Below, piece after piece: positions 3,032-60,185 of a stretch of DNA of 64,000 nt. Location: positions 20,441 to 84,440 of the forward strand of contig JAZQXT010000075.1 in the NCBI GenBank assembly GCA_045633005.1, read 5' to 3'. The DNA comes from Eubacteriales bacterium (GTDB taxonomy: Bacteria; Bacillota; Clostridia; Oscillospirales; CAG-272). A model generated the notes under the pieces. That model had not been told where the DNA came from, did not search any database, and saw only the letters and a list, made by a program, of their open reading frames with translations. Within the stretch, counting starts at the first letter, position 1. Each line of letters opens with the position of its first letter. Made by a program: the position numbers and the translations under genes.

Positions 3032-3733
3032 TAAGAATATCATTGAGCCAACGTCGAAAAGCACTTCGTCCGAAAGCGAGCGGATTGGGGTTTTGTGCCG
3101 AGCGCAAAAATCGCGTATTTTTTCATAGTCGGGATGACGCTCAATGCTTCCCGCAAAGTACAAGGTATCACCGCAAACACCGCTTGCGCCGCCAATAAAG
3201 CCGTATTGGTAAGGCGGGAGCTTGACGTGTCCCGATGATATGAGTAGAGCCTCGCCGCCCTGCGCTGAAAAAGCCTTGCATATCCCCGCATCTGCGGAAA
3301 TTACAGCGCCGTCCGAAAGCGCGGCGCAGGAGCATTTTGCATATCCCTGCGAAACGTCAACTATCGAAAGCCCCGCTTGCTTTGCGAGGGAAACGGCATC
3401 GCCGCAGGTGTACTTTACGTTGCATATTGCGTGTTTTTTAAGGGCGCAAGCGCAAAGGGATACGTCGTTGGGGTAGGACTCGCCTATCACCGTGTCGCAT
3501 AGCCTTATTTCGTAGCCGCACTCGCTGATGCGCGAAAGCTCACGCTCGGCTATCGTGGCGTAGCTCTTGTGTGTCAATACGGTCTTGCCTATACTGAAAA
3601 GCAAAAGGTCTGCGTGCGATGCTATGGGCGCGGAGAGTGATGGATGAGGAGGGAGCAAGACGGGCTCGATTCCGAGCCGCAAAAGCTCATCGCGGCAGGC
3701 GCGGGGTAAACGGCAATCGGTTACACAAAGCAT
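3029..3733 (-). CDS. Conserved hypothetical protein, amidinotransferase/GME-fold-like (recalled as DUF6873-type)
   Basis: GGAGG lies 5 nt upstream of the ATG at 3733 (MLCVTDCRLP...). The ORF-track start at 3778 has no RBS. HADLLLF and a C-terminal GGASGVCGD motif resemble guanidino-modifying-enzyme-fold proteins. The family assignment is from memory only. Confidence 0.5.
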   Translation of the reverse strand: MLCVTDCRLPRACRDELLRLGIEPVLLPPHPSLSAPIASHADLLLFSIGKTVLTHKSYATIAERELSRISECGYEIRLCDTVIGESYPNDVSLCACALKKHAICNVKYTCGDAVSLAKQAGLSIVDVSQGYAKCSCAALSDGAVISADAGICKAFSAQGGEALLISSGHVKLPPYQYGFIGGASGVCGDTLYFAGSIERHPDYEKIRDFCARHKTPIRSLSDEVLFDVGSMIFL

Positions 3734-5571: not shown

Positions 5572-6246
<675 letters not shown>

Positions 6247-31936: not shown

Positions 31937-31965
31937 TTGACAAAACATTTGGATTGTGATAATAT
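31937..31965 (+). promoter_or_regulatory. Sigma-A promoter TTGACA-17-(TGa)TAATAT for tRNA-Lys
   Basis: Hexamers at 31937-31942 and 31960-31965. The tRNA begins 15 nt downstream of the -10. Confidence 0.65.
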
Positions 31966-31979
31966 ATATGGAGCCGCGT

Positions 31980-32055
31980 GATCCATTAGCTCAGACGGTA
32001 GAGCACTTGACTTTTAATCAAGGTGTCCGGAGTTCGAGTCTCCGATGGATCACCA
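31980..32055 (+). tRNA. tRNA-Lys (anticodon UUU), CCA encoded
   Basis: Cloverleaf folded by hand. Acceptor GATCCAT/ATGGATC. D arm GCTC-AGACGGTA-GAGC. Anticodon arm CTTGA-CTTTTAA-TCAAG. T arm CGGAG-TTCGAGT-CTCCG. Discriminator A plus CCA. Total 76 nt. Confidence 0.95.
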
Positions 32056-32092: not shown

Positions 32093-32290
32093 TGATCCAC
32101 GAGCGAACTCCGTCCGCAAGCTTGCTTGTAAGCGCCAAGACAAGGAAAACGCCGTTGGCGTTTTCAGTGAAATCCGACTTCGTCGGGTGAAATACGGCTT
32201 CGCCGTGTGAAATATTTGCCTTACGGCAAATGTGAAATATTTTGCTTCGCAAAATGTGAAGGTGGCTTTTTGCTTGCGCAAAAAGCATTT
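32093..32290 (+). repeat. Heptamer-punctuated hairpin array A (GTGAAAT x4 plus GTGAAGG)
   Basis: GTGAAAT occurs at 32167, 32187, 32207 and 32232, and GTGAAGG at 32256. Each is followed by a different short stem with a TTC/TTAC/TTGC loop: CCGAC-ttc-GTCGG, ACGGC-ttc-GCCGT, ATTTGCC-ttac-GGCAAAT, ATTTTGC-ttc-GCAAAAT, GCTTTTTGC-ttgc-GCAAAAAGC. AAAACGCC-gtt-GGCGTTTT (32147-32165) precedes them. Confidence 0.8.
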
Positions 32291-32338: not shown

Positions 32339-33187
32339 ATGCTTTACGACGTAATGAATGCGGCGGGGTTTCCGAAGGAAGCCCAAGATTATTTTATACT
32401 AAAGGAACAAGAGCTGTTGCGTATGGAGTGCGCGGAGCAGAGGATAGCCGACGCTGTGGCGGCGGTATGCACGGACGGCGCGGAGTTCATCCCGCTTCTC
32501 GAAGCGCTCTCGGCGGATAGCGGCGTGCCGCGCTACGCCTCCGATATGATAGTGCTGCTCTACGCCGCCGAAAAGATGGCGGAGCGATACAAGGAAGCAG
32601 GGCTGTCCGACGAAATATATATTGACACGATATCCGACCTTCGCAACAAGCTTTACGAATGCAAAAAGCTAAAGGGCGAGTGGGGAACGTTCGTGGCGTG
32701 GTGGCTTGCGGGATATTTCAGGCTCAAGCGTTTTGCCCTCGGCAGACTTCAATACGAGGTCGTGGAGCACGAGGGAGGGCACGCGCTGAACTGCCACATA
32801 CCGTCGGGCTCGCCGCTGAATTTCGAAGCCGTTATGGCTTCGCTTCGCAAAGCGTACGATTTTTATCCGCAGGTGAGGCGCGACGGCAAAATTACCGTGG
32901 TATGTCATTCGTGGTTGCTTTATCCGCCGCACAGAGAGCTGTTTTCGGACGGCGGCAACCTGCGCCGTTTCGTAGACCTTTTCACTATTACGGAAAGCAC
33001 CCCCGACCCGAAAAATCAATCCCTTTGGCTGATCTTTTATAAAAATTACAATTCCGTAAGCCTCGACGAGCTTCCGACGGATACCACGCTCCGGCGCGCC
33101 TTCGTAAAGTATCTGCGCGATGGCAACTGTATGGGCTACGGCAGGGGATATTTGATATTTGATGGTGAAAAAGTAGTATCAAAATAA
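32339..33187 (+). CDS. Conserved hypothetical protein, probably a GNAT-like acyltransferase-domain protein
   Basis: AAGGAG RBS. 282 aa. The overall pattern (helical N-terminal domain, then ...RLKRFALGRLQYEV...HIPSGSPL...VVCHSWLLYP) matches proteins I recall being annotated as acyltransferase-domain-containing. Not verified. Confidence 0.5.
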   Translation: MLYDVMNAAGFPKEAQDYFILKEQELLRMECAEQRIADAVAAVCTDGAEFIPLLEALSADSGVPRYASDMIVLLYAAEKMAERYKEAGLSDEIYIDTISDLRNKLYECKKLKGEWGTFVAWWLAGYFRLKRFALGRLQYEVVEHEGGHALNCHIPSGSPLNFEAVMASLRKAYDFYPQVRRDGKITVVCHSWLLYPPHRELFSDGGNLRRFVDLFTITESTPDPKNQSLWLIFYKNYNSVSLDELPTDTTLRRAFVKYLRDGNCMGYGRGYLIFDGEKVVSK

Positions 33188-33259
33188 AAAAGTTACGGGA
33201 ATATGCCGTACTCTAAAGGACAGTTTTTAATTCAACAGAATACAGTACCTACCGACAGA

Positions 33260-33298
33260 AAAAGGACGGAGAGTTGTAAACTCCCCGTCCTCTTTTAT
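33260..33298 (+). terminator. Intrinsic terminator after the 32339 gene
   Basis: AGGACGGAGAG-(7 nt)-CTCCCCGTCCT (one mismatch) followed by CTTTTATTT. Confidence 0.65.
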
Positions 33299-33344
33299 TT
33301 GCAAGCACTGCTTTTTGTAACTACAAATGCGATGATTCAATTCG

Positions 33345-33549
33345 TCGATATGCTTCGCTGCGCTCAGCTCGATATATTTGCCTTGCGGCAAATTCGATAT
33401 AACCGCCCTTGCGGTCGGTTTCGATATGATATTCGCCTATTTTTCTCGTGCGAAGCACATATCGAGTCCGTAAGGACATATCGAGCACGAAGTGCATATC
33501 GATCGCCGTAGGCGAATATCGATGCGTTGTGCCCTTAAGGGCACAACGC
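33345..33549. repeat. Heptamer-punctuated hairpin array B (TCGATAT x4 then its reverse complement ATATCGA x4)
   Basis: TCGATAT occurs at 33345, 33369, 33394 and 33421. ATATCGA occurs at 33459, 33478, 33496 and 33516. Interleaved hairpins include ATTTGCC-ttgc-GGCAAAT (the same stem as in array A), GTCC-gtaa-GGAC, GCAC-gaa-GTGC, TCGCC-gta-GGCGA and GCGTTGTGCCC-ttaa-GGGCACAACGC. Long-range complement: GATATTCGCC (33428-33437) with GGCGAATATC (33511-33520). Confidence 0.8.
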
Positions 33550-33556
33550 TAACCAT

Positions 33557-35114
<1,558 letters not shown>

Positions 35115-48998: not shown

Positions 48999-51900
48999 AT
49001 GACAACAAAATTCCAAAGAATCGTAGCTCTCTTCCTTGCCGTCTGCACCATGATGGGTTGCTTTATGCTTACAGCATATGCCACCGAGTCGTCATCGACG
49101 ACAACGGGCAAGGGCTCCGTCACGAGTAACGCTATCGCAGACGCAGAGGAGCTACTCGATGCTATCACCTATGCAGAGTATCTTGCTTTGTACGGTGATG
49201 ACGCCATATATCCGGCGGGCACCGAAAGCATCGTTATCAATGGCGTTGACTATTATGCCGATAAGACTACGGCTGAAGTCAAGAAGGAAACCTTTGACGG
49301 CGTTGAGGGTCTGGTGACCCCCGAAAACGGCGAGGTTACTTGGAAGGTCAACGTTCCCAAGACGGGTAAGTATGCTATCAAGCTTACTTATTGGCCTGTT
49401 GAGGGTAAGCCCGCGGCTATTCAGCGCGAGTTTAAGATAAACGGCGCCGTTCCCTTCGTTGAGGCTTACTACATCACTCTCTCAAGAGTATGGAAGAACG
49501 TCTACGACGAGGCAAACAAGCACACCATTGCAACGGGTGACGAGCGTTATTTCCAGGCGGACTTCCTCGGAAACGAGATCAGACCGACTATGGTGACCGC
49601 TCCCGAATGGTGCGAGTATTCGCTTAAGGATATCGACGGCTTCTATCAGGATAGCTTTGAGTTCCTTTTCAATGAAGGTGAGAATACCATTACCCTTGAG
49701 GGTATAAGCCAGGCTATGGCTATTTCCACCATCGAGCTCTATCCTTACGAAGAGCCTATCTCTTACGATGAGTACATTAAAAAGTACGAGGGTCAGCCTA
49801 ACGGCACGGGCAAGGTAAAGTTTGAGGCGGAGATTCCCTTTAAGCTCTCCACCAACACCGTATACCCCGTTGAGGACCGCACCTCTGCACTCACCAGCCC
49901 CGTAGATGCATCCTGCACTCTGCTTAACACCCTCGGCGGTGAGAAGTGGCAGACCTCTGGTCAGTGGATAAGCTATCAGTTTACCGTTGATGCCAGCGGA
50001 ATGTACGAGATAACCTCGCGCTTCAGACAGGACATCAACGACGGTATGTATTCCTCTCGCGTACTTTATCTGTACAGCGATGACAGCGTTGCTTCGGGCG
50101 ACCTTGGATACTATAACGGCATTCCCTTCAGCGAGGCAAGAGAGCTTAGATTCAACTACTCCACGGATTGGCAGTCTGCTCCCCTTCAGTACGGCAAGAC
50201 CGTAGTAAAGGAGAACGGCGAGTCCACCGTAGAGCTTTGCGACACTAAATATTACTTTAAGGAAGGCGTTACCTACACCATGAAGCTTGAGGTATCCCTC
50301 GGCTCGATGGGTGAGGTCATAAGCGAGATCGAAAACTCCCTTACCATAATCAACAATGCTTACCTTAACATAATAAGACTTACCGGTTCTAACCCTGACG
50401 AGTATCGTGACTATTATTTCAGCGAGATAATGCCCGATACCATCATCAATATCATTCTTCAGGGCGAGAAGCTCAAGGCTATCGCAGATCAGCTCGCATC
50501 TCTTTCGGGCGAGACGGGATCTAACGTTGCTACTCTTCAGAAGATCGCACGTCTGCTTGAGAGAATGGGCTCCGACGAGGACGAGATAGCAAAGAACCTT
50601 GAGACCCTCAAGACCTATATCGGTACTCTCGGTACTTGGCTCAGCGACGCTAAGAGCCAGCCCCTCCAGCTCGACTACATCGTTATCCAGAGCGCAGAAG
50701 AGGAGCTTCCCGAGGGCGAGGCAGGCTTCTTTGCAGCACTTTGGCACGAGCTTAAGAGCTTCTTCTGGAGCTTCTTCCGCGATTACAACAATATGGGTGC
50801 ATCCGAGGAGACTATCTCGGGTAACGAGACCATCGAGGTCTGGATCGCAACCGGACGTGACCAGAGCCAGGTTCTCCGTAACCTTGTAAACAACGACTTT
50901 ACTCCCACTACGGGCATTCCCGTTAACCTCAAGCTCGTTGCGGCGAATACGCTTCTGCCTTCTATCTTGGCAGGAAGCGGACCTGATTCTTACCTCGGAC
51001 TCAGTGATAACGACGTTATCAACTACGCTATCCGTGGTGCACTCGCTCCCATCGAGAATTACGAGGGCTTTAACGAGGTCTCAACAACGCAGTTTAACGA
51101 GGCTGCAATGATGGTTCTTGGTATCGCAGACGCAAACGAGGTCATGCACTACTACGGACTTCCCGAGACGCAGACCTTCCCGATGATGTTCATCCGTACC
51201 GACATTCTTGCAAATCTCGGTATTGAAAAGCTTGATACTTGGGGAGACCTTCTCTCTGCGGCTACCGTTCTCAGCCAGAACAATATGACCATCGGTCTTT
51301 CCAACGACTATAAGATATTCCTCTATCAGATGGGCAGTGAGCTTTTTGCTGATAACGGAATGAGAGTCAACCTCGACTCCAACCTCGCACTTGATTCCTT
51401 TGAGACCATGTGCGATATGTTCACACAGTACTCCTTCCCCTATAAATTCGACTTTGCAAACCGCTTCCGTACGGGTGAGATGCCCATAGGTATCTCGGCG
51501 TATAACGCAACGTACAACCAGCTCATCGTATTTGCTACCGAGCTTCGCGGACTTTGGGAATTCGTTCCGCTGCCCGGTTATGAGTACGTTGATGAAAACG
51601 GCGAGACCAAGATCAACAACTGTTCCGTTTCTACGGTAACCGCAACCGTTCTTATCAACAACGACGGCGCAAATGCAGAGACGCTTCACAAGAACGCTTG
51701 GGAGTTTATGAAGTGGTATTCGGGCGCTGAGTGTCAGATCAACTACTCCAACGAGATGGTTGCTATCCTCGGTGACTCCGCAAAGCACGCTACCGCAAAC
51801 GTTACCGCGCTCGATTCGATGCCTTGGACCAACAAGGAATATACGAATCTCAGCGCTCAGTTTAAGAACCTTGCTTCTATTCCTAACTACCCCGGTACTT

Positions 51901-52406
51901 ACATCATTCAGCGTTACACTCAGTTCTCGTTCCTGTCTGCGTATAACGACAAGCTCGATCCCACTGATGACCTTCTCGGATATATTCCCGTTATAAATAA
52001 GGAAATATCTCGAAAGAGAGCAGAGTTCGGACTTGAGACCCTTGAGGTCGGTGAGACGCTGGCAAGCAAGCGTCAGTTTATGATACTTGCCGCACTCGGC
52101 GCACTCGACGGACACGGACTTACGAGCGCGGAGGAGGAAAGATATACTTCTCTCGTTACCGTTCTCAGCGACGCGGACAAGACGACCTACGCCGCAGAGA
52201 TAGAGGCACTTAAGAAGGCACTTTCGGATATTCCTTCGTACAGAGCTTATTGTGAGGACGTTTACATCGATGCCCTCAGAGCGGCGGGCGATGCTCTTGA
52301 AGCAGCAAACGCCGAGCTGTTCGGAAACATCTGCAAGTACATCGATGCTTGCGCTGACGCGCTTAAGTCATATCAGGCATCTTACCCTGCTCCCAAAAAG
52401 GGATAA
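48999..52406 (+). CDS. Giant secreted solute-binding protein: two beta-sandwich (CBM-like) modules + helical linker + family-1 SBP domain
   Basis: AGGAGG RBS. Signal peptide MTTKFQRIVALFLAVCTMMGCFMLTAYA. The SBP-like part reads ETIEVWIATGRDQSQVLRNLVNNDFTPTTGIPVNLKLVAANTLLPSILAGSGPDSY. It sits first in an operon with ABC permeases. Confidence 0.72.
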   Translation: MTTKFQRIVALFLAVCTMMGCFMLTAYATESSSTTTGKGSVTSNAIADAEELLDAITYAEYLALYGDDAIYPAGTESIVINGVDYYADKTTAEVKKETFDGVEGLVTPENGEVTWKVNVPKTGKYAIKLTYWPVEGKPAAIQREFKINGAVPFVEAYYITLSRVWKNVYDEANKHTIATGDERYFQADFLGNEIRPTMVTAPEWCEYSLKDIDGFYQDSFEFLFNEGENTITLEGISQAMAISTIELYPYEEPISYDEYIKKYEGQPNGTGKVKFEAEIPFKLSTNTVYPVEDRTSALTSPVDASCTLLNTLGGEKWQTSGQWISYQFTVDASGMYEITSRFRQDINDGMYSSRVLYLYSDDSVASGDLGYYNGIPFSEARELRFNYSTDWQSAPLQYGKTVVKENGESTVELCDTKYYFKEGVTYTMKLEVSLGSMGEVISEIENSLTIINNAYLNIIRLTGSNPDEYRDYYFSEIMPDTIINIILQGEKLKAIADQLASLSGETGSNVATLQKIARLLERMGSDEDEIAKNLETLKTYIGTLGTWLSDAKSQPLQLDYIVIQSAEEELPEGEAGFFAALWHELKSFFWSFFRDYNNMGASEETISGNETIEVWIATGRDQSQVLRNLVNNDFTPTTGIPVNLKLVAANTLLPSILAGSGPDSYLGLSDNDVINYAIRGALAPIENYEGFNEVSTTQFNEAAMMVLGIADANEVMHYYGLPETQTFPMMFIRTDILANLGIEKLDTWGDLLSAATVLSQNNMTIGLSNDYKIFLYQMGSELFADNGMRVNLDSNLALDSFETMCDMFTQYSFPYKFDFANRFRTGEMPIGISAYNATYNQLIVFATELRGLWEFVPLPGYEYVDENGETKINNCSVSTVTATVLINNDGANAETLHKNAWEFMKWYSGAECQINYSNEMVAILGDSAKHATANVTALDSMPWTNKEYTNLSAQFKNLASIPNYPGTYIIQRYTQFSFLSAYNDKLDPTDDLLGYIPVINKEISRKRAEFGLETLEVGETLASKRQFMILAALGALDGHGLTSAEEERYTSLVTVLSDADKTTYAAEIEALKKALSDIPSYRAYCEDVYIDALRAAGDALEAANAELFGNICKYIDACADALKSYQASYPAPKKG

Positions 52407-52445
52407 AGCATTGGATCTAAAATCAACGTAAGGAGAAACAAGTAC

Positions 52446-53393
52446 ATGTCAAGTAACACAGCAACAAAAAAGGCTGTATCCAGAAAAGATATGTCGCGCT
52501 GGCAGTGGACATGGAAAGAGATGAAGCGCAACTGGGTAGCGTACGTTATGATCGCTCCCTTCTGCATAGTCTTCACGCTCTTCACCGTGGCACCGGTTGT
52601 GGTCTCGCTTTTGATAAGCTTTACTGACTTTAACCTGATGCAGATCCCTAACATCGTGTGGCTGGATAACTACATTCGCCTTTTCCTTGATGACGATCTT
52701 TTCCTGACTGCCATCAAAAACACATTCATCTTCGCCGTGATCGTCGGTCCCGCTTCCTATTTGATGTCTCTTATGGTTGCGTGGTTCATCAACGAGCTTA
52801 GCCCCAAGATCCGTGCGATCGTAACCCTTATATTCTACGCTCCCTCCATTTCGGGTCAGGTATACCTTATTTGGGGTACGCTTTTCTCCAGTGACTCATA
52901 CGGCTGGGTAAACGCAACGCTCCTTGACCTTAACCTTATAAGTGAGGAAATAGCGTGGTTTGAAAACGCATCTTACATTATGCCGCTTTGTATCGTGGTT
53001 GCCCTTTGGACCTCGCTTGGAACCTCGTTCCTTAGCTTTATTGCAGGTCTTCAGGGTATTGACCGTTCAATGTACGAGGCGGGCGCGGTTGACGGTATCC
53101 GCAACCGTTGGCAGGAGCTTTGGTACATAACCCTGCCTTCCATGAAGCCGCAGCTGATGTTCGGTGCGGTCATGTCCATCACCAGCTCCTTCGGCTTCGG
53201 CGGAGTCGTTACCTCGCTCTGCGGATTCCCCTCCACCGACTATGCCGCATGGACCATTACTCACCACCTCGACGACTACGGAGGACAGCGTTTTGAGGTT
53301 GGATATTCTTCGGCAATAGCAGTTGTGCTTTTTGCCATCATGATCGGAGCCAACGGCTTGGTCAAGAAAGTCTTGTCAAAGGTAGGACAGTGA
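52446..53393 (+). CDS. Carbohydrate ABC transporter permease (MalF/CUT1 type), pair 1
   Basis: Six hydrophobic segments. EAA loop YEAGAVDGIRNRWQELWYITLPSMKP. Confidence 0.9.
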   Translation: MSSNTATKKAVSRKDMSRWQWTWKEMKRNWVAYVMIAPFCIVFTLFTVAPVVVSLLISFTDFNLMQIPNIVWLDNYIRLFLDDDLFLTAIKNTFIFAVIVGPASYLMSLMVAWFINELSPKIRAIVTLIFYAPSISGQVYLIWGTLFSSDSYGWVNATLLDLNLISEEIAWFENASYIMPLCIVVALWTSLGTSFLSFIAGLQGIDRSMYEAGAVDGIRNRWQELWYITLPSMKPQLMFGAVMSITSSFGFGGVVTSLCGFPSTDYAAWTITHHLDDYGGQRFEVGYSSAIAVVLFAIMIGANGLVKKVLSKVGQ

Positions 53394-53394
53394 T

Positions 53395-54270
53395 ATGGCA
53401 AAGAAATTAAGAACCAGAAAGCATAAAGTCGTTCTTAACCGTTCAGCCGGTGGCGACGCAGGTATCACTTTCATCCTTTTCATTCTCGGCATATTTATGT
53501 TCCTCCCTATGTTTTACGTTATCATGCAGTCTCTCAAGCCTCTTGATGAGCTCTGGATGTTCCCGCCGAGATTTACCGTTTCCAACCCCACGTTCTCCAA
53601 CTTCGGTGATCTGTTCACCCTTATGAACACCTCTTGGGTACCCTTCTCACGTTACATATTCAACACCGTATTCGTGGCTGTAACGGGTACTATAGGAAAC
53701 CTGTTCTTCGGCTCTCTTGCCGCATACGCACTCGCAAAGATCGCGTTCCCCGGCGGAAAGACGATATTCAAAACGATCCGTATGTCGCTGATGTTCCATC
53801 AGACCGTTACGCAGATCACGAACTTCATCATCATGAGTGCTCTCGGCATGCTTGATACCCAGTGGGCTATCATCATTCCCGCATGGGGCTCTACTCTCGG
53901 TCTTTACCTGATGAAGCAGTTTATGGAGACCAACGTTCCCAACACCGTTCTTGAGTCTTCAAGACTTGACGGTGCGAGCGAGCTTAAGACCTTCTGGGTC
54001 ATCGCAATGCCTATGGTTAAGCCCGGTTGGCTTACTCTTATCGTTTACTGTTTCCAGAACCTTTGGAACTCCGGCTCCTCGATCTACATTCACTCCGAGC
54101 AGCTCAAGTCATTCAACTACGCGATCGGTCAGATCACCGCGGGCGGTATCAAGCGTGCGGGTGCATCTGCGGCTGCAACCGTTGTAATGATGATGGTTCC
54201 TATCATGGTATTCGTTATCACCCAGTCGAACATCATCGAAACGATGGGTTCGAGTGGTATGAAGGACTAA
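53395..54270 (+). CDS. Carbohydrate ABC transporter permease (MalG/CUT1 type), pair 1
   Basis: EAA loop LESSRLDGASELKTFWVIAMPMVKP. It starts 1 nt after the upstream stop. Confidence 0.9.
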   Translation: MAKKLRTRKHKVVLNRSAGGDAGITFILFILGIFMFLPMFYVIMQSLKPLDELWMFPPRFTVSNPTFSNFGDLFTLMNTSWVPFSRYIFNTVFVAVTGTIGNLFFGSLAAYALAKIAFPGGKTIFKTIRMSLMFHQTVTQITNFIIMSALGMLDTQWAIIIPAWGSTLGLYLMKQFMETNVPNTVLESSRLDGASELKTFWVIAMPMVKPGWLTLIVYCFQNLWNSGSSIYIHSEQLKSFNYAIGQITAGGIKRAGASAAATVVMMMVPIMVFVITQSNIIETMGSSGMKD

Positions 54271-54282
54271 GGAGGTTGTGTA

Positions 54283-56421
54283 ATGAAGAGATTTATTAGC
54301 ATTATCGCCTTGGTTTTCGCGCTTGTTATGATTTTTGCAGTTCCTGCAAGTGCATTCAAGCCCTATCAGACCTATACCTACTCGATCGACGGCTTTGCGC
54401 TCCACTCTCCCGATGCGTATACTCCCGTAAGAACGGTAGATTCCGCGTATATGGGACTTGAAGTACCCTTTGACGAGCCCCGTGATATCGTTGTCGATGA
54501 AAGCGATAACGTTTATCTCGTTGACTCAAAGAACGACAGAGTTGTAGTTCTCGATAAGTACTTCAAATTCAAATTCGACGTAGATACCTTCGTAAACGAG
54601 CAGGGAGTTGACGACTGCCTGAACAATCCTAACGGCGTGTTCGTAAAGAACGGCGTTATGTACGTTTGCGATACCGACAACGCTCGTATCGTTACCTTTG
54701 ACACTAACGGTAATTTCCTTCGCATCATAGCAGAGCCCGAAAGCTCCCTCTTTGACGAAGGCTCGGCTTATATGCCCATTGCCGTTGCGGTTGACGATTA
54801 CGGCAAGCTCTACGTAGTATCTATGTCCAACTACGAGGGCGTCATCGTTATGGACTACGACGGCGAGTTCATCTGCTTCGTAGGCGCTCAGAAGGTTTCT
54901 CTTACCGCTTGGGAAAAGATCTGGAGAATGTTCCAGACCGACGAGCAGAGAGAGCTCAGCGAAGCAAACATTTCTACAACTTATAATAATATCACAATTG
55001 ATGCGGACGGCTTCATTTATATCACCACCGACGGTATAGACGAGGACGACCAGTATAGCGCTATGACGGGTAAGGATAAGTCGGGCGACTTTGCTCCCGT
55101 TAAGAAGCTCAACCCCGCAGGCGACGAGGTCATGGCGAGAAACGGCTTCTGGCCTCCCTCCGGAGAGCTTGATATATCCCTTACCACCGCAGACGGCTCG
55201 ACGGCAGTTGGTGCTTCGAAGATCGTTGACGTAGCGGTAGGACCCGAGAAGACTTGGTCCATCATCGACGAGAAGAGAAGTAAGATATTCACCTACGACG
55301 AGCAGGGTAACCTCTTGTTCGCATTCGGTGATTTCGGCTCACAGCTCGGAAACCTTGAGAACATCGAGGGTATATGCTACATGAGCGACGGAATGCTTCT
55401 CGTTCTTGACAAAATACTTGATAATATCACCGTTTACCAGAGAACGGAATACGGCGATATCATTATTCAGGCTCTCGCAAATCAGAACTCCCGTCAGTAC
55501 GACAGAGCTATTGACGACTGGTTTGAGATCCTTAAGAGAAACTCCAACTTCGACGCCGCTTATATAGGAATCGGTGATGCGTACTACCGTAACGGTGAGT
55601 ATGAGCTTGCACAGGATTACTACAAGGCAGCGTACGATACTGAGGGTTGGTCCAAGGCATACGCCGAGATCCGTAAGGAATGGATCGGTAAGTACGTATG
55701 GACTGTTCCGATCTTCATAGTTGCAGTAGTTCTCATCGTTTCCAAGCTGTTCAAGAAGGCGGCTAAGGTCAACAAGCACGCGGCTACCGCAGGCGGCAAG
55801 CGTACCTTCGTTGAGGAGCTCGTTTACGGCTTCCACCTTATCTTCCACCCATTCGACGGCTTCTGGGATCTGAAGCACGAAAAACGCGGTTCTCTCCGCG
55901 CCGCGCTGGTTTATCTGGTAGTTACGGTATTCGTATTCTTCTATCAGGCTATCGGCTCGGGTTACCTTGTAAATCCCTATGAGAACCAGTCCTCGGTATT
56001 CGTCCACATTCTCGGAGTTCTTCTCCCCATAATGCTTTGGGTAATATCCAACTGGTGTCTTACCACTCTGTTTGAGGGTGAGGGAAGCCTTAAGGACATC
56101 TTTATTGCGTGCTGCTATGCACTGCTTCCCATAGTTCTCATCTTCATCCCCACTACTATCGCTTCTAACTTCGTACTTCTTGAGGAGCTTGATCTTGTCA
56201 ACGTTCTCAACTCGTTTGCGTTCATTTGGGCAGGACTCTTGATCTTCTCGGGTATGATGATAACTCACGACTACACCGTGAGCAAAAACTTCGTTACCGT
56301 GCTTGGTACGCTTATAGCTATGGTATTTGTAATGTTCGTTGCTATTCTGTTTACAACTCTCGTTGCAAAGATCGTAAGCTTTATTGCCAACATCGTTACC
56401 GAGATCGGCTATCGCTTATAA
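54283..56421 (+). CDS. Fusion protein: signal peptide + NHL-repeat beta-propeller + TPR + C-terminal 5-TM Yip1-like domain
   Basis: NHL-like blades (PRDIVVDESDNVYLVDSKNDRVVVLD, PNGVFVKNGVMYVCDTDNARIVTFD, PIAVAVDDYGKLYVVS, IEGICYMSDGMLLVLD). TPR (IGIGDAYYRNGEYELAQDYYKAAYD). Then multiple TM helices with a Yip1-like layout. Confidence 0.65.
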   Translation: MKRFISIIALVFALVMIFAVPASAFKPYQTYTYSIDGFALHSPDAYTPVRTVDSAYMGLEVPFDEPRDIVVDESDNVYLVDSKNDRVVVLDKYFKFKFDVDTFVNEQGVDDCLNNPNGVFVKNGVMYVCDTDNARIVTFDTNGNFLRIIAEPESSLFDEGSAYMPIAVAVDDYGKLYVVSMSNYEGVIVMDYDGEFICFVGAQKVSLTAWEKIWRMFQTDEQRELSEANISTTYNNITIDADGFIYITTDGIDEDDQYSAMTGKDKSGDFAPVKKLNPAGDEVMARNGFWPPSGELDISLTTADGSTAVGASKIVDVAVGPEKTWSIIDEKRSKIFTYDEQGNLLFAFGDFGSQLGNLENIEGICYMSDGMLLVLDKILDNITVYQRTEYGDIIIQALANQNSRQYDRAIDDWFEILKRNSNFDAAYIGIGDAYYRNGEYELAQDYYKAAYDTEGWSKAYAEIRKEWIGKYVWTVPIFIVAVVLIVSKLFKKAAKVNKHAATAGGKRTFVEELVYGFHLIFHPFDGFWDLKHEKRGSLRAALVYLVVTVFVFFYQAIGSGYLVNPYENQSSVFVHILGVLLPIMLWVISNWCLTTLFEGEGSLKDIFIACCYALLPIVLIFIPTTIASNFVLLEELDLVNVLNSFAFIWAGLLIFSGMMITHDYTVSKNFVTVLGTLIAMVFVMFVAILFTTLVAKIVSFIANIVTEIGYRL

Positions 56422-56438
56422 CGGCAGGAGGATAAAAA

Positions 56439-59400
56439 ATGAATAAGATGAATAGAATTATTGCATTGATTCTGACTGTCGTAATGCTTATCGGAACTCT
56501 TATGCTTGAAGTCGGAGCGGCTACCGCTGTCGATATCATCTATGAAGAGGATGAGAACGGCAAGGCTACCGATATTATCGATTACGAGAAAACGGTTGCT
56601 CAGTACCTCACGCTTGAGTTCGAAACACCTCAGCAGAAGCTTGCTACCATGACTAAGATGGTAGAGAGAGACGGATATCAGCTTTGGGTCGATGATTTTA
56701 CGGGCGAAGTTGCTACCGTAAACGTTGAAACGGGCGAGATCCTTTTCTCCAACCCCTACGACGTAGCTACCACCGGTACTACGGCGACGAGAGCTGAGAT
56801 CATGTCTCAGATCATCGTTACCTATATGGATAACGATGCTAAGAAGAAGATGAACAGCTTCGTTGATGCCGCACAGCGCGGACAGATCACCGTAAAGCAT
56901 ATCAAGAACGGTGTCAGAGTTGAGTACAGCATCGGTCGTGAGGACGCGAGAATGCTCGTTCCCAGACTTATCGAGAAGGAAAGATTCGAGACCAAGATAC
57001 TTGATCCCTTTGCGGCTGAGATAAATGCAGTTTCCGAAGAGCAGGGACTTCCCGTCAAGGAGTGGAGAGATTACCACTACGATCTTACCCTCCGCGATAA
57101 GATAAGACAGGAATCTAAGAACCAGCTCTGGCATAACTTCAATATGCTCAGAAACTTCTACACTTACCATGAAATGGGCTCTACGGGCGGTGACCAGCAC
57201 GTTTCCAAGGTAATAAACTCCATGGGCGTTTACTACTTTGAGACCAACACCAACCTCACCCAGCTCAGCAAGGTAGAGAACCTTATTAAGACCTACGTTC
57301 CTTCCTACACCTACGAGGATCTTGAGGCTGACCATACCAAGACTCAGTACGTAAGCGCAGACCTCATTCCTCCCGTATTCAAGATGGCTCTTGAGTATAC
57401 TCTTGACAAGTGGGGCGTCAGCGTTTGCATGCCTGCAAACGGACTTCGCTTCAACGAGTCCATCTACCAGCTTGAGAACATCAGCGTTCTTCCTTATATG
57501 GGAGCTGGCGCAAACTACGTAGGCGATGATAAGACTGACGTTATCACAGGCTACAACTTCTTCCCCGATGGCTCAGGAACGCTCTTCCGTCACGAGGACC
57601 TTGCAGGTAGCGTTGCTACCGCCGTTTCGGGTAAGGTATACGGTCAGGATTACGCATACAACACCATTATCGGTTCACATCAGGAAATTATCAGATACCC
57701 CGTATTCGGTATAGTTTCCAACGATGCCTACTATAACAGAACCTACGAGGAGCAGCTCGTTGAAAAGCCCGTTCTTGATGAAGAGGGCAACGAGAAGAAG
57801 GATGAAAACGGAAACGTTATCACCGAGCAGGTTAAGGAAATGGTAGAGGTCGGCTCCGAAAGAGTTGATCAGGACCGCGGCTTCGTTGCTATCATTGAAG
57901 AGGGTGACGCACTTGCCGAGCTTTCCACGTATCACGCAGGATCGCTTTCCAAGTACAACGCCGTAAATATGCTCTTCAGCCCCAGACCTAAGGATACCTA
58001 CAACCTTGCAAACGCTATCTCCGTTGGTGCAAATGCATCTTGGACCGTAGTTTCCTCCCGTAAGTACACGGGCAACTACACCATCCGTTACATTATGCTT
58101 ACCGACGATGCTACCGCAAAGTCAAAGGGAATAACCGACTACTATGAAACCAGCTGGATGGGTATGGCAGAGGCTTACCGCGATTATCTCTACGAAGCAG
58201 GTAATCTCGACGCCCTTGATGCAAACGAGATCAAGGAAGATATCCCCGTATACATCCAGACGTTCGGTGCTCTCGAGACTATCGAGAAGTACCTTTCCAT
58301 CCCCGTAAACGTAATGACTCCTCTCACCTCGTTTGAGGATATCAAGACCATGCATAGCGAGCTCGCCGCTGAGGGCGTATCGAACGTTAAGTTCAAGCTT
58401 ACGGGTTATGCAAACGGCGGTATGTATTCAAGCATGCCCTCCGATCTTGATTGGGAGAGTGCAGTAGGTGGCAAGGACGGATACGAAGAGCTTCTGGCTT
58501 ATGCAAATGCAAACGGCTTTGAGCTGTTCCCCGACTTCAACTTCGCTTACGTAAGATCGATGGAGGACTCCATCTTTGATAGCTTCGTGTTCAGCAAGCA
58601 CCTCGTTAAGTCCATTAACGATACGTATATGTCCAAGAGATATTACAGCGCAACGAGACAGACCTACATCGGTCGTTTTGAGCTTGCCGTATCTCCCGCA
58701 TATTACGCAAACTTCTATGAAGAGCTTGCCGCAAATCTTCTTGAATCCTATGCAGACGGAATGCCCACCGCGATCTCGGTAGGCACTCTCGGAACGGAGC
58801 TTAACTCCGACTTTGACGAGGATGAGCCTTACAACCGTGAGGACTCCAAGTCTCAGACCGTCTCTATCTTTGAGAAGATCGACAAGGACTTCAATTCCGT
58901 AATGACCGACGGAGCAAACGTTTATACTTGGAAGTACATCGACCATATCGTAAACGTATCTCTCGACTCCAGCCGTTACATCAAGTCAAGCGCAGCCGTA
59001 CCCTTTATCGGTGTTGTTCTTCACGGTAGCAGACAGTTCGCAGGAACTCCTCTTAATATGGAAGGAAACATCGGCTATAGCTTCTTGAAGGCTATTGAAA
59101 ACGGTGCAAGCCTTAACTTCACTCTTTGCTATCAGAACTATGATGAGTTCAAGGAGTATATGGACCTTAGCGAATACTATTCCGTACGTTACGACATCCT
59201 TAAGAGCGAGGTAGTTGAGTACTACACGCTTCTCAACAGCCTTACCAAGGATCTTCAGCTTTCCAAGATAGTAGCTCACGAATTCCTTATCGGCGAACGT
59301 GTTCCCGATGAGGATGAGAAGGCTGCTGACGAGGAACAGGCTAAGAAGGAAGAGGCAGAGAAGGAAGCAGCCGAGACGGAAGCCGCTGAAAAGGCATATC

Positions 59401-60185
59401 AGGCTGCTATCAACCACGGTAGAACCGTAGCTCTTGCCGAGATCAGCAAGGCTCTCGCTACCATTACCGAGAGAACTCAGACTACTAAGAACTATTCCGA
59501 AACCCTTCGCGGACTGCTTGATCAGCTCGTAGCACTCGAGTCCGGAACTCCCGCAGATCCCGAGACTCCCGCAGTAGACGCTACTACTCCCGCTGCTGAA
59601 ACGACCGATGAGGAAGCAGCCGCTGCAAAGGAAAAGCTGCTCAAGGATATCGACGGATACCTTTCCTCGATTCAGGCAAACAACGCAATGCTCAACGATG
59701 AGTTTGCAATAGCTAAGAAGGCAAACGCCAACGTAATTCTTGCTTACGAGCACTACGTTACCAAGAATGCCGAGGGCTTCTCTCAGGCGTTCAAGGATGA
59801 CGTTACCGCAAGCTACAACGGTGTAACCTCTGCTTATGCAAATATCGCTACTCAGGTAACCGAAGCTTACGCCGCAGCATCCGCAGTATTTGAGGAGGCT
59901 AAGGCTATCCTTGGTGAGCTTAAGTACGTTCTCGTTGATCCTAATGCCGAGCCTGAAAAGGAAGAGGAGAAGGATGACGACGACGGCTACAACTACACCA
60001 AGTACACCGACGATAACGACAACATCGTTCGCGTCGAGTACGAAAACGGCGTATTCTTCATTCTTAACTTCAACTACTTCGACGTAACCGTTAAATACAA
60101 CGGTCAGGAGTACACCATCGCAAACTACGGTGGAATCAGAGTAAACGCAGACGGCACGACAACTGCTTTTGCCGTAAATAATTAA
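56439..60185 (+). CDS. 1248-aa secreted/anchored protein of unknown function (recalled as DUF5696-type)
   Basis: AGGAGG RBS. N-terminal hydrophobic signal/anchor (IIALILTVVMLIGTLMLEVGAA). Long globular region. Acidic coiled-coil segment (DEDEKAADEEQAKKEEAEKEAAETEAAEKA, ~59307-59400). Asp-rich stretch (EEEKDDDDGYNYTKYTDDNDN). No catalytic motif I can name. Confidence 0.6.
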   Translation: MNKMNRIIALILTVVMLIGTLMLEVGAATAVDIIYEEDENGKATDIIDYEKTVAQYLTLEFETPQQKLATMTKMVERDGYQLWVDDFTGEVATVNVETGEILFSNPYDVATTGTTATRAEIMSQIIVTYMDNDAKKKMNSFVDAAQRGQITVKHIKNGVRVEYSIGREDARMLVPRLIEKERFETKILDPFAAEINAVSEEQGLPVKEWRDYHYDLTLRDKIRQESKNQLWHNFNMLRNFYTYHEMGSTGGDQHVSKVINSMGVYYFETNTNLTQLSKVENLIKTYVPSYTYEDLEADHTKTQYVSADLIPPVFKMALEYTLDKWGVSVCMPANGLRFNESIYQLENISVLPYMGAGANYVGDDKTDVITGYNFFPDGSGTLFRHEDLAGSVATAVSGKVYGQDYAYNTIIGSHQEIIRYPVFGIVSNDAYYNRTYEEQLVEKPVLDEEGNEKKDENGNVITEQVKEMVEVGSERVDQDRGFVAIIEEGDALAELSTYHAGSLSKYNAVNMLFSPRPKDTYNLANAISVGANASWTVVSSRKYTGNYTIRYIMLTDDATAKSKGITDYYETSWMGMAEAYRDYLYEAGNLDALDANEIKEDIPVYIQTFGALETIEKYLSIPVNVMTPLTSFEDIKTMHSELAAEGVSNVKFKLTGYANGGMYSSMPSDLDWESAVGGKDGYEELLAYANANGFELFPDFNFAYVRSMEDSIFDSFVFSKHLVKSINDTYMSKRYYSATRQTYIGRFELAVSPAYYANFYEELAANLLESYADGMPTAISVGTLGTELNSDFDEDEPYNREDSKSQTVSIFEKIDKDFNSVMTDGANVYTWKYIDHIVNVSLDSSRYIKSSAAVPFIGVVLHGSRQFAGTPLNMEGNIGYSFLKAIENGASLNFTLCYQNYDEFKEYMDLSEYYSVRYDILKSEVVEYYTLLNSLTKDLQLSKIVAHEFLIGERVPDEDEKAADEEQAKKEEAEKEAAETEAAEKAYQAAINHGRTVALAEISKALATITERTQTTKNYSETLRGLLDQLVALESGTPADPETPAVDATTPAAETTDEEAAAAKEKLLKDIDGYLSSIQANNAMLNDEFAIAKKANANVILAYEHYVTKNAEGFSQAFKDDVTASYNGVTSAYANIATQVTEAYAAASAVFEEAKAILGELKYVLVDPNAEPEKEEEKDDDDGYNYTKYTDDNDNIVRVEYENGVFFILNFNYFDVTVKYNGQEYTIANYGGIRVNADGTTTAFAVNN

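Follow-up and report, generated by a model that had tools for sequence, protein, structure and literature searches.

A heptamer-punctuated hairpin array of a gut Clostridia genome as a probable copy of a dispersed, structured RNA element of the Gut-1 superfamily

The intergenic region 33338-33549 of the window, i.e., of the 64,000 nucleotides of Eubacteriales contig JAZQXT010000075.1 analysed here, is with high confidence one copy of a conserved, dispersed and structured RNA element of gut Clostridia, belonging to the same superfamily as Rfam Gut-1. The hairpins of this element and one long-range helix are under structural selection, and the element is expressed. Compared with Rfam and the searched literature, the UCGAUAU class, the full layout of four direct and four inverted heptamers (4+4) with its competing helix, the repertoire of heptamer classes and the strain polymorphism are new; our search for publications on Gut-1, hairpin arrays and clostridial extragenic repeats returned nothing beyond Weinberg et al. 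2010. The best overall explanation, which we hold with moderate confidence, is that a Gut-1-superfamily RNA element acts here in cis, as a module of transcript ends or intercistronic regions.

On the plus strand, the array under study (array B) consists of three TCGATAT-hairpin units, a fourth TCGATAT, 31 nt and four ATATCGA-hairpin units. TCGATAT starts at 33345, 33369, 33394 and 33421, and its reverse complement ATATCGA at 33459, 33478, 33496 and 33516; the heptamer positions of a preliminary description are thus correct at every coordinate, as is the orientation switch that it placed midway. The hairpins that it named after the heptamers, GTCC-gtaa-GGAC, GCAC-gaa-GTGC, TCGCC-gta-GGCGA and the 11-bp GCGTTGTGCCC-ttaa-GGGCACAACGC, are all found in the sequence. 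Such an arrangement is clearly non-random, as had been proposed. Indeed, the window carries 31 copies of TCGATAT on both strands, against 10.2 ± 2.9 expected and 19 in the largest shuffle, and eight of the 31 are packed into the 178 nt 33345-33522. Folding of array B was better than that of shuffles on either strand (z = -6.9 and -7.2). The stem ATTTGCC..GGCAAAT is shared, as had been noticed, by array B (33376-33393) and a second array, array A (32214-32231), and in the strain variants L007 and L009 the array B stem carries the same TTAC loop as array A. In a scan of the window for chained 6-8-mers, array A (32141-32260) and array B were the only matches in non-coding DNA. A coding sequence was rejected, since the heptamer spacings of 24, 25, 27, 38, 19, 18 and 20 nt are not multiples of three, and the ORFs 33203-33511 (+) and 33321-33497 (-) were discarded as genes because the segment is missing from sister strains. 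Array B was found again in independent ENA, JGI and Logan assemblies and therefore is not an assembly artefact. In several assemblies, contig breaks fall within such arrays.

Read on the minus strand, the element opens with H0, an 11-bp hairpin (33524-33549) located 7 nt past the stop of a DnaJ-domain gene; in most relatives, a long H0-like hairpin or the terminator of the upstream gene likewise stands directly ahead of the first heptamer. The 5' half (33459-33522, positions 1-70 of the covariance model described below) carries four UCGAUAU, corresponding to the plus-strand ATATCGA, and three short perfect hairpins, Ha (33503-33515), Hb (33485-33495) and Hc (33466-33477), all with stems that covary in the family; the loops of the hairpins that follow the four UCGAUAU are CUACG, CUUCG, CUUACG and CUUCG. 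The centre (33428-33458) comprises hairpin Hd (33448-33458), a spacer and a pairing segment (33428-33439) belonging to a 12-bp complement. The 3' half (33345-33427), recognised from both sequence and model, carries four AUAUCGA, corresponding to the plus-strand TCGATAT, together with the hairpins He (33401-33420), Hf (AUUUGCC-GCAA-GGCAAAU, 33376-33393) and Hg (GCU-GA-GC-GCA-GC-GA-AGC, 33352-33368), the last with possible tandem G.A pairs. Inspection by eye revealed no complementarity between the loops of the two halves within one element that would allow kissing.

To place array B among related loci, one genome per species was scanned for three ATATCGA at gaps of 8-24 nt, which gave at least 119 loci. 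Among the matches listed, the hosts include many Oscillospiraceae, Acutalibacteraceae, Christensenellaceae and other Clostridia MAGs from ruminant, horse and human guts, and at many of these loci plus-strand and minus-strand pattern matches lie side by side. The loci that were parsed have the same layout of four TCGATAT and four ATATCGA, with about 175 nt between the outer heptamers. A covariance model, R1, built from 15 elements with the window excluded, aligned to the window over its full length on the minus strand (33338-33522, 141.1 bits, E = 1e-32), with 75.4 bits on the plus strand, and detected at least 38 elements at 96 bits or more in 55 sources. The same 4+4 layout thus recurs well beyond this locus, which is not unique. 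In the R1 alignment, 96.4% of the cells are paired and 24 pairs show two-sided changes, in 291 cells; none of 500 shuffles reached this level and slid partners gave at most 45% pairing. RNAalifold run on an independent MAFFT alignment recovered the same hairpins, with compensatory changes in 18 pairs. A heptamer-Hf-heptamer scan of JGI metagenome contigs yielded 6 loci, and an exact 36-mer of the window element had 0 matches in these contigs.

Within the UCGAUAU class, the heptamer itself is under strong purifying selection. Its putative heptamer-heptamer helices do not covary in this class, most single changes breaking the pair, so that only covariation between classes speaks for heptamer zipping. 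Eight exact heptamers in two orientations resemble transposon ends or ParB/omega-type sites, and the selection on the heptamer could also be explained by an array of protein-binding sites in duplex DNA, of iteron, operator or partition type and spaced by about two helical turns. We consider this reading very improbable: hairpin covariation in the spacers would be superfluous for duplex DNA, the spacing varies from 18 to 38 bp, the several heptamer classes present per genome would require several proteins, and the region is transcribed.

A 10-bp complement had been described in array B and thought to fold its two halves onto each other. The complement is real and even extends to 12 bp (33428-33439 with 33509-33520), but it pairs the centre with one end unit rather than half with half, the stretch 33509-33520 being composed, in RNA orientation, of the end of the first heptamer and the 5' arm of Ha. 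This long-range helix is present in all 22 oriented elements, with 8-15 bp (mean 11.7). Its variable part, X, occurs as about 10 distinct 7-mers of roughly six types, namely AAATCYC, AAATTCC/AAATTCT, GAATTCT, TCGCC, TGCTCC and AAATCAC, and in the neighbouring part of the helix a change of GATAT to GAGAT is compensated by a change of ATATC to ATCTC. In a 17-sequence alignment, the helix is 93.6% paired and 7 of its 12 pairs covary; again, 0 of 500 shuffles reached this level, and slid partners were at most 55% paired. In RNA orientation, the same X forms the 5' arm of the first hairpin, so that either the local or the long-range pairing can be present, but not both at once. Both the local hairpin and the competing pairing are conserved.

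The array had been described on the plus strand. The functional strand is likely the minus one, a conclusion that we infer from wobble counts, the reading of one motif and the genomic context, along with the nearly twofold R1 scores (141 vs 75 bits). In the hairpins of the plus-strand left half, the 22 oriented elements contain 9 A.C against 1 G.T, and therefore G.U wobbles on the minus strand; the long-range helix taken in minus orientation contains 8 U.G cells. A recurrent plus-strand hairpin TCGC-NNN-GCTC (33352-33368 in the window) reads GAGC-NNN-GCGA on the minus strand, where the sequence would allow tandem sheared G.A pairs. Taken in minus-type orientation, the element follows a co-directional gene or tRNA in about 17 of 24 loci, for instance five tRNAs in L055 and one in L065. 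An RBS and ATG directly follow the element in L062, L068, L089, L094, L118 and L251, and elements stand straight after a stop codon or terminator. On the other hand, a variant of H0 in sister strains, GTGTCC/GGGCAC, keeps its pairing only as a plus-strand wobble (T.G) and, together with some heptamer variants, favours the plus strand; wobbles among single-base heptamer variants are about equal on either strand. The elements L078, L129, L109b and L032 are antisense to both neighbours, and the co-orientation with genes may only mirror the gene-strand (replication-strand) bias of Firmicutes.

The link to Gut-1 comes through array A, a half-form relative on the plus strand (32141-32290) made of a 5' hairpin, four GUGAAAU each with a hairpin, and a terminator. 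Its hairpin loops are of the C-UUC-G or C-UUAC-G type. It is located downstream of tRNA-Lys(UUU) (31980-32055) and of the terminator of this tRNA, and has its own terminator at 32265-32286; a promoter of the tRNA gene was recognised as well. Rfam RF01706 (Gut-1), with a consensus of (G)UGAAAU and hairpins with a CUUCG loop, matches array A at 32141-32218 (+) with 57.2 bits, for a gathering score of 50. A search of 4227 Rfam families identified array A only, as Gut-1, with no match to array B at E <= 10, and RF01706 searched directly against 33300-33600 gave no match on either strand, even at E <= 10. Array B is thus outside Gut-1 by gathering score, at which RF01706 also misses the other heptamer classes. 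Array B nevertheless presents the Gut-1-type layout, i.e., a 5' hairpin followed by at least three heptamer/short-hairpin units with a C-UUC-G-type loop, though its heptamer UCGAUAU departs from the GUGAAAU/GUGAUAU of Gut-1. It also shares a gut origin and RNA expression with this family, the direction of the RNA being deduced.

In the raw seed alignment of Gut-1, several members extend into a longer architecture, with a central complement and four inverted heptamers, as seen in the flanks of two seeds. In the orientation used by Weinberg, seed BAAZ01000095 is accompanied by UAUAU-UCGCC-UGAC-GGCGA, GCGAUAU/GUGAUAU units, GGCGAAUAUA and four AUAUCAC units, and seed BAAZ01025322 follows a tRNA and terminator with the same layout, GUGAUAU three to four times, GGCGAAUAUA and AUAUCAC four times. 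Since these raw flanks show the 4+4 layout, the Rfam Gut-1 models only the 5' half of the superfamily architecture. Array B has the same extended features, a central complement of the first unit and four inverted heptamers with hairpins; on its minus strand, array B represents the UCGAUAU form of the extended Gut-1 architecture. Other heptamers occur in the same layout, including GCTAAAT/ATTTAGC (L085), GTGAAGT/ACTTCAC (L083), GTGATAT/ATATCAC (L047) and GTTATGA/TCATAAC (L081), and in L085 a GCGATAT/ATATCGC element adjoins a TCGATAT element. In these elements, the centre is again composed of the last five heptamer bases plus X, and the second half is always the reverse complement of the element's own heptamer; heptamers of different classes have a common core close to GAWAU. 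Half forms with four direct units alone are often found in 5' UTRs. Further variants are a form with the 5' half, centre and terminator, a permuted form with four ATATCGA followed by four TCGATAT, and fusions of classes such as L029 (four AUGAAAU, then four UCGAUAU); tandem 7-nt repeats adjoin some arrays. The preliminary description had attributed arrays A and B to a common generating mechanism. Their architecture is indeed common, but local generation is not supported. Position-specific hairpins are conserved or covary across genera, the 4+4 layout is present in more than 38 elements and array A is Gut-1, which points to two members of one old, dispersed family of structured RNAs.

In the window, array B occupies the convergent intergenic gap between a GNAT-like gene (Pfam NAT_N + GNAT_C, 32339-33187, +), ending at 33187, and the DnaJ-domain gene (33557-34198, -), ending at 33557. 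The other neighbours are of housekeeping type and encode LigA, HPF, an S11 peptidase, DUF5685, HAD and ROK proteins, and nine ORFs scanned between 26.4 and 38.7 kb include no transposase, cas, tas, reverse transcriptase or toxin gene. On the GNAT side of the gap, the sequence 33255-33298 forms a bidirectional intrinsic-terminator-like hairpin, assigned to the minus strand, with a stem at 33264-33290 between a run of A and a run of T. This hairpin probably marks the 3' end of the minus-strand element transcript and at the same time terminates the GNAT-like gene on the plus strand. Hairpin and flank go along with the element in the relatives L252, L253 and L009.

Both arrays are present in metatranscriptome assemblies from bovine and other gut samples. 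In samples X25 and X26, the RNA depth was 21-51 over 32126-32277 and 5-137 over 33342-33569, with about 0 over the GNAT and DnaJ genes, these values coming from assembled contigs without direction and in part from relatives of the element in other organisms. The depth of the DnaJ gene was similar to that of the element in X15 and X28. Left of about 33277 the depth fell to about 0, which is consistent with termination at the 33264-33290 hairpin, and loose contig ends reveal expression of further family members in these RNA samples. A discrete RNA signal with silent flanking genes and an own terminator would also be expected of a trans-acting sRNA, stand-alone or derived from a 3' UTR, or of a sponge whose linker heptamers bind several copies of a protein or RNase, on the model of CsrB/RsmZ for CsrA, with the complementary 3' half masking the sites. 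The classification of Gut-1 by Weinberg et al. as a non-cis-regulatory sRNA (PMC2864571), the common core near GAWAU of the heptamer classes and the half forms with exposed heptamers point in the same direction. We nonetheless regard this role as rather unlikely, since several heptamer classes coexist in one genome, many copies lie in 5' UTRs or between cistrons and no candidate for a partner protein is linked to the elements. Furthermore, no promoter-like site was found between the DnaJ stop codon and H0, which suggests co-transcription with the DnaJ operon.

Comparison of strains shows that the element and its 3' flank form a polymorphic segment (33195-33553). Among contigs encoding an identical DnaJ protein, L003, L005, L007, L008 and L009 carry the element (about 98% identity), and in L001, L002, L006 and L010 the stretch 33195-33553 is replaced by a 23-nt terminator hairpin. 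In RNA and DNA contigs of other organisms, the match covers the element, and similarity to the window ends at 33552-33554. In close relatives, the element lies after a 173-aa GNAT gene (L253) or between the gene of a SpoIVB-like peptidase and the RBS that follows (L251), and the window's 3' flank with its terminator is also common to L252 and L253; none of the window's flanking genes was present in the 119 genome loci, among the matches listed. The similarity of the two L109 copies is limited to the part running from H0 to the last heptamer, with about 8 nt more. L085 and L032 contain two or three elements within 2 kb, and both orientations occur in clusters.

This behaviour recalls selfish or mobile DNA, either MITE- or REP/BIME-like or built stepwise, for instance by repeated small palindromic insertions each duplicating a 7-bp target, with transcription and folding as mere by-products. 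Such an origin could explain the presence and absence in near-identical strains, the copying of a discrete unit to unrelated flanks and gene contexts, the clusters in both orientations, and a heptamer that is identical within an element and different between elements. The mirrored halves with near-perfect Watson-Crick stems, the half arrays, the class fusions and the tandem 7-nt repeats would fit as well. However, the boundary between the window and L001 alleles is a replacement and not a clean insertion, with neither terminal inverted repeats nor target duplications, and the L109 copies have no target duplication; a MITE was rejected on these grounds. There is no transposase within about 6 kb. 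Viral contigs are not enriched, the two-orientation layout being found in 2 of 118 pattern matches, and blastn against plasmid and phage collections gave no match; a phage or plasmid origin was rejected accordingly. Hairpins at homologous positions are conserved or covary across families, as expected from ordinary descent under structural selection and not from fresh generation, and the element has strand-asymmetric features, namely G.U pairs, tandem G.A pairs and a one-sided central helix. The resemblance of the heptamer classes to each other would not be predicted for arbitrary target duplications either. On balance, we judge an explanation by primarily selfish DNA improbable, although both this reading and that of a trans-acting sRNA or sponge are compatible with the preferred one.

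The preferred reading, a Gut-1-superfamily RNA acting in cis, can be put as follows. In the minus-strand RNA, the element would open with H0 and continue with four UCGAUAU, each followed by a short perfect hairpin, then with a central segment and four AUAUCGA units, the latter with hairpins that appear to combine GNRA or GAA loops, G.U pairs and a tandem G.A motif. The complementary sets of heptamers could zip the two halves into a rod of short helices with the hairpins branching off, and the central segment, whose 10-15 bp with the first unit compete with the local hairpin there, could produce a second conformation. Transcription of the RNA would prolong that of the DUF5685/DnaJ-domain operon at its 3' end and stop at the 33264-33290 terminator. 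It may then serve as a compact, nuclease-resistant module at transcript ends or between cistrons, where it would protect or insulate the adjoining mRNA and build up as a stable fragment, in the manner of REP/BIME, ERIC or BOX elements. At the DNA level, it would behave as a discrete intergenic repeat that spreads and is lost. This specific role, a nuclease-resistant cis module combined with repeat-like spread, is a tentative proposal drawn from the analysis as a whole, and we rate it as plausible but somewhat short of probable.

Several features fit this proposal less well. The between-class covariation that speaks for heptamer zipping is explained equally well by an origin through inverted duplication or by a DNA-level reader. 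The stems of one half are near-perfect Watson-Crick helices (192 of 195 pairs), which speaks against the RNA reading, and the loop preferences of the two halves are mirror images (CUUCG-like vs CGAAG/GNRA-like); stem perfection and mirrored loops look more like DNA symmetry than RNA selection. Besides, an invariant heptamer and a 4+4 layout with a competing helix exceed the needs of an exonuclease block. A bolder, and in our estimate quite unlikely, interpretation is that the heptamer-punctuated hairpin ladders represent a new functional class, either self-assembling RNA scaffolds or arrays grown by a dedicated machinery. In the first case, the eight mutually complementary heptamers could act as promiscuous zippers within or between molecules, and half arrays of other loci could pair in trans; in the second, a machinery that adds or copies units would account for a heptamer that is constant inside an element and different between neighbours. 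If true, either version would be new biology.

Gut-1 has been present in Rfam since 2010 as a 77-nt orphan motif, from gut sequence only. Its true unit measures about 190 nt, with a strict 4+4 layout and a covarying long-range helix in competition with a local hairpin, and the superfamily comprises at least six heptamer/complement classes. The element occurs widely among Oscillospirales and allied Clostridia in the guts of ruminants and humans. In the metatranscriptomes analysed, its abundance exceeds that of the neighbouring genes, and it behaves as a dispersed, strain-polymorphic repeat. Strains that either carry or lack the element at one locus provide defined alleles, with which the function of this abundant class of gut-bacterial RNAs becomes directly testable. 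The R1 model and the layout rules also permit annotation of many unannotated intergenic regions in gut MAGs.

Gut-1 itself is the closest known system. It was described by Weinberg et al. 2010 from human-gut sequence as a probable sRNA and classed as non-cis-regulatory (PMC2864571). Array B and its relatives share with it the source, gut Clostridia and gut metagenomes, and the frequent location after a tRNA and terminator, whereas the published model, 77 nt with three hairpins, has neither the inverted half and long-range helix nor the heptamer classes and repeat-like dispersal. The family also resembles REP/BIME, ERIC, BOX and Correia-type repeats in being extragenic, palindromic and modular, with units of both orientations within arrays. 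Like REP/BIME-type repeats, its members are multicopy and strain-polymorphic and lie at 3' ends or between cistrons, where they are co-transcribed into stable RNA. REP/BIME are imperfect palindromes of about 35-40 nt with little sequence change from copy to copy in a given genome. For these types of repeats in general, the sequence is kept within a genome, and transposases (RAYT, IS200/IS605-like) or TIR/TA targets are known or suspected. In the array B family, by contrast, only the heptamer and the architecture are kept; the hairpins, of 11-20 nt, differ within and between elements, which sets the family apart from the REP/BIME palindromes, and no TIR, TSD or transposase was seen.

A constant linker between variable palindromes in a transcribed tandem array superficially suggests guide RNAs such as those of TIGR stem-loop, CRISPR-like or type III antitoxin repeat arrays. 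CRISPR and type III antitoxin (ToxI-like) arrays are built from near-identical direct repeats of about 25-45 nt and accompanied by cas genes or a downstream toxin endoribonuclease. Array B differs from both, its constant unit being only 7 nt and its units not identical repeats, with no cas or toxin gene nearby. TIGR arrays are more similar, since their repeated feature is also a variable yet always palindromic stem, and a dual-repeat TIGR locus has been characterised in the gut Clostridium Flavonifractor plautii (PMC12045711). Each TIGR stem-loop, however, holds two 8-12-nt spacers bounded by box C/box D, and the arrays adjoin a Nop-domain tas gene (Faure et al. 2025, PMC12045711). Loops of 3-4 nt therefore leave no room in array B for two such spacers with box C/D; its linkers are 7 nt and no tas gene is found among the neighbours. 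A guide-RNA array is accordingly discarded as a candidate, with next to no probability left to it. Finally, CsrB and RsmZ are likewise abundant RNAs rich in short hairpins, with a short motif that recurs along the molecule. Their GGA motif is located in the loops and binds CsrA, whereas the motif of array B is a linker that occurs in both polarities and changes between elements.

The 4+4 layout of heptamers and hairpins matched by our covariance model R1 (the UCGAUAU element) also occurs in modified arrangements at other genomic and metagenomic loci (L numbers). Head-to-tail fusions join arrays of different heptamer classes in L029 and L052: in the former, four AUGAAAU are followed by four UCGAUAU (5980-6166), and in the latter, four UCGAUAU and a hairpin precede three to four AAUUCAU (1753-1960), which are unable to pair with the UCGAUAU set of the same fusion. 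At four other loci the order is permuted, with four ATATCGA preceding four TCGATAT and CTCG...GAG at the borders (L035:1334-1524, L061:15-205, L108:7791-7933 and L127:7388-7563). Such elements resemble a circularly permuted version of the normal 4+4 order. Full UCGAUAU elements are also carried by two IMG/VR contigs labelled viral, with scores of 142 bits (L150:5135-5309) and 110 bits (L166:5433-5722); these contigs may represent prophage or wrongly binned host sequence.

Sequences adjoining the hairpin arrays were also recorded. Tandem 7-nt repeats free of hairpins, with the words GCATTCT/GCACTCT (GGAATGC/GGAATTC on the opposite strand), directly adjoin hairpin arrays in four loci (L031:157-280, L052:~1985-2030, L088:~3120-3161, L100:501-530 and 880-915). 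Furthermore, two unrelated half arrays of the UCGAUAU class share the motif GAGACAAGGGGACGGTTCTNTTGTCTTG in their upstream sequence: one copy is in L015 (~3160-3195), where a good extended -10 promoter precedes it, and the other is in L052 (~1675-1705); no Rfam match to this motif was found at the gathering score.

Within the window, TCGATAT occurs 23 times outside array B (33338-33549), counting both strands, versus about 10 copies expected for the whole window. Codon or dipeptide bias could be the source of this excess; alternatively, it could stem from a word that includes TCGA or ATCGAT and is connected with methylation or restriction. The ACTCCCGC words repeated at 59547-59595 are coding repeats, corresponding to P-rich linkers of a 1248-aa ORF (56439-60185), which belongs to a succession of very large ORFs of 1135, 712 and 1248 aa (48999-60185). 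This 1248-aa ORF has no relation to the hairpin arrays.

Several independent metagenome contigs, strain variants of the window locus, terminate within the arrays, at window positions 33375 (L007), 33388 (L003), 33487 (L005) and 33516 (L008) in array B and at 32234 (L006) in array A, which suggests that both arrays are common break points of short-read assemblies.

Array A itself (32141-32290, plus strand) is a Gut-1 RNA by its Rfam match, with 57.2 bits, and is flanked by the tRNA-Lys(UUU) terminator on one side and by its own terminator on the other. Since the sole promoter-like site upstream of it is the tRNA promoter (31937-31965), the array A RNA may, on this sequence arrangement, be produced by read-through past the tRNA-Lys(UUU) terminator. 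The same order, tRNA, terminator and element, is found in L055, in L065 and in BAAZ01025322, a member of the Gut-1 seed alignment.
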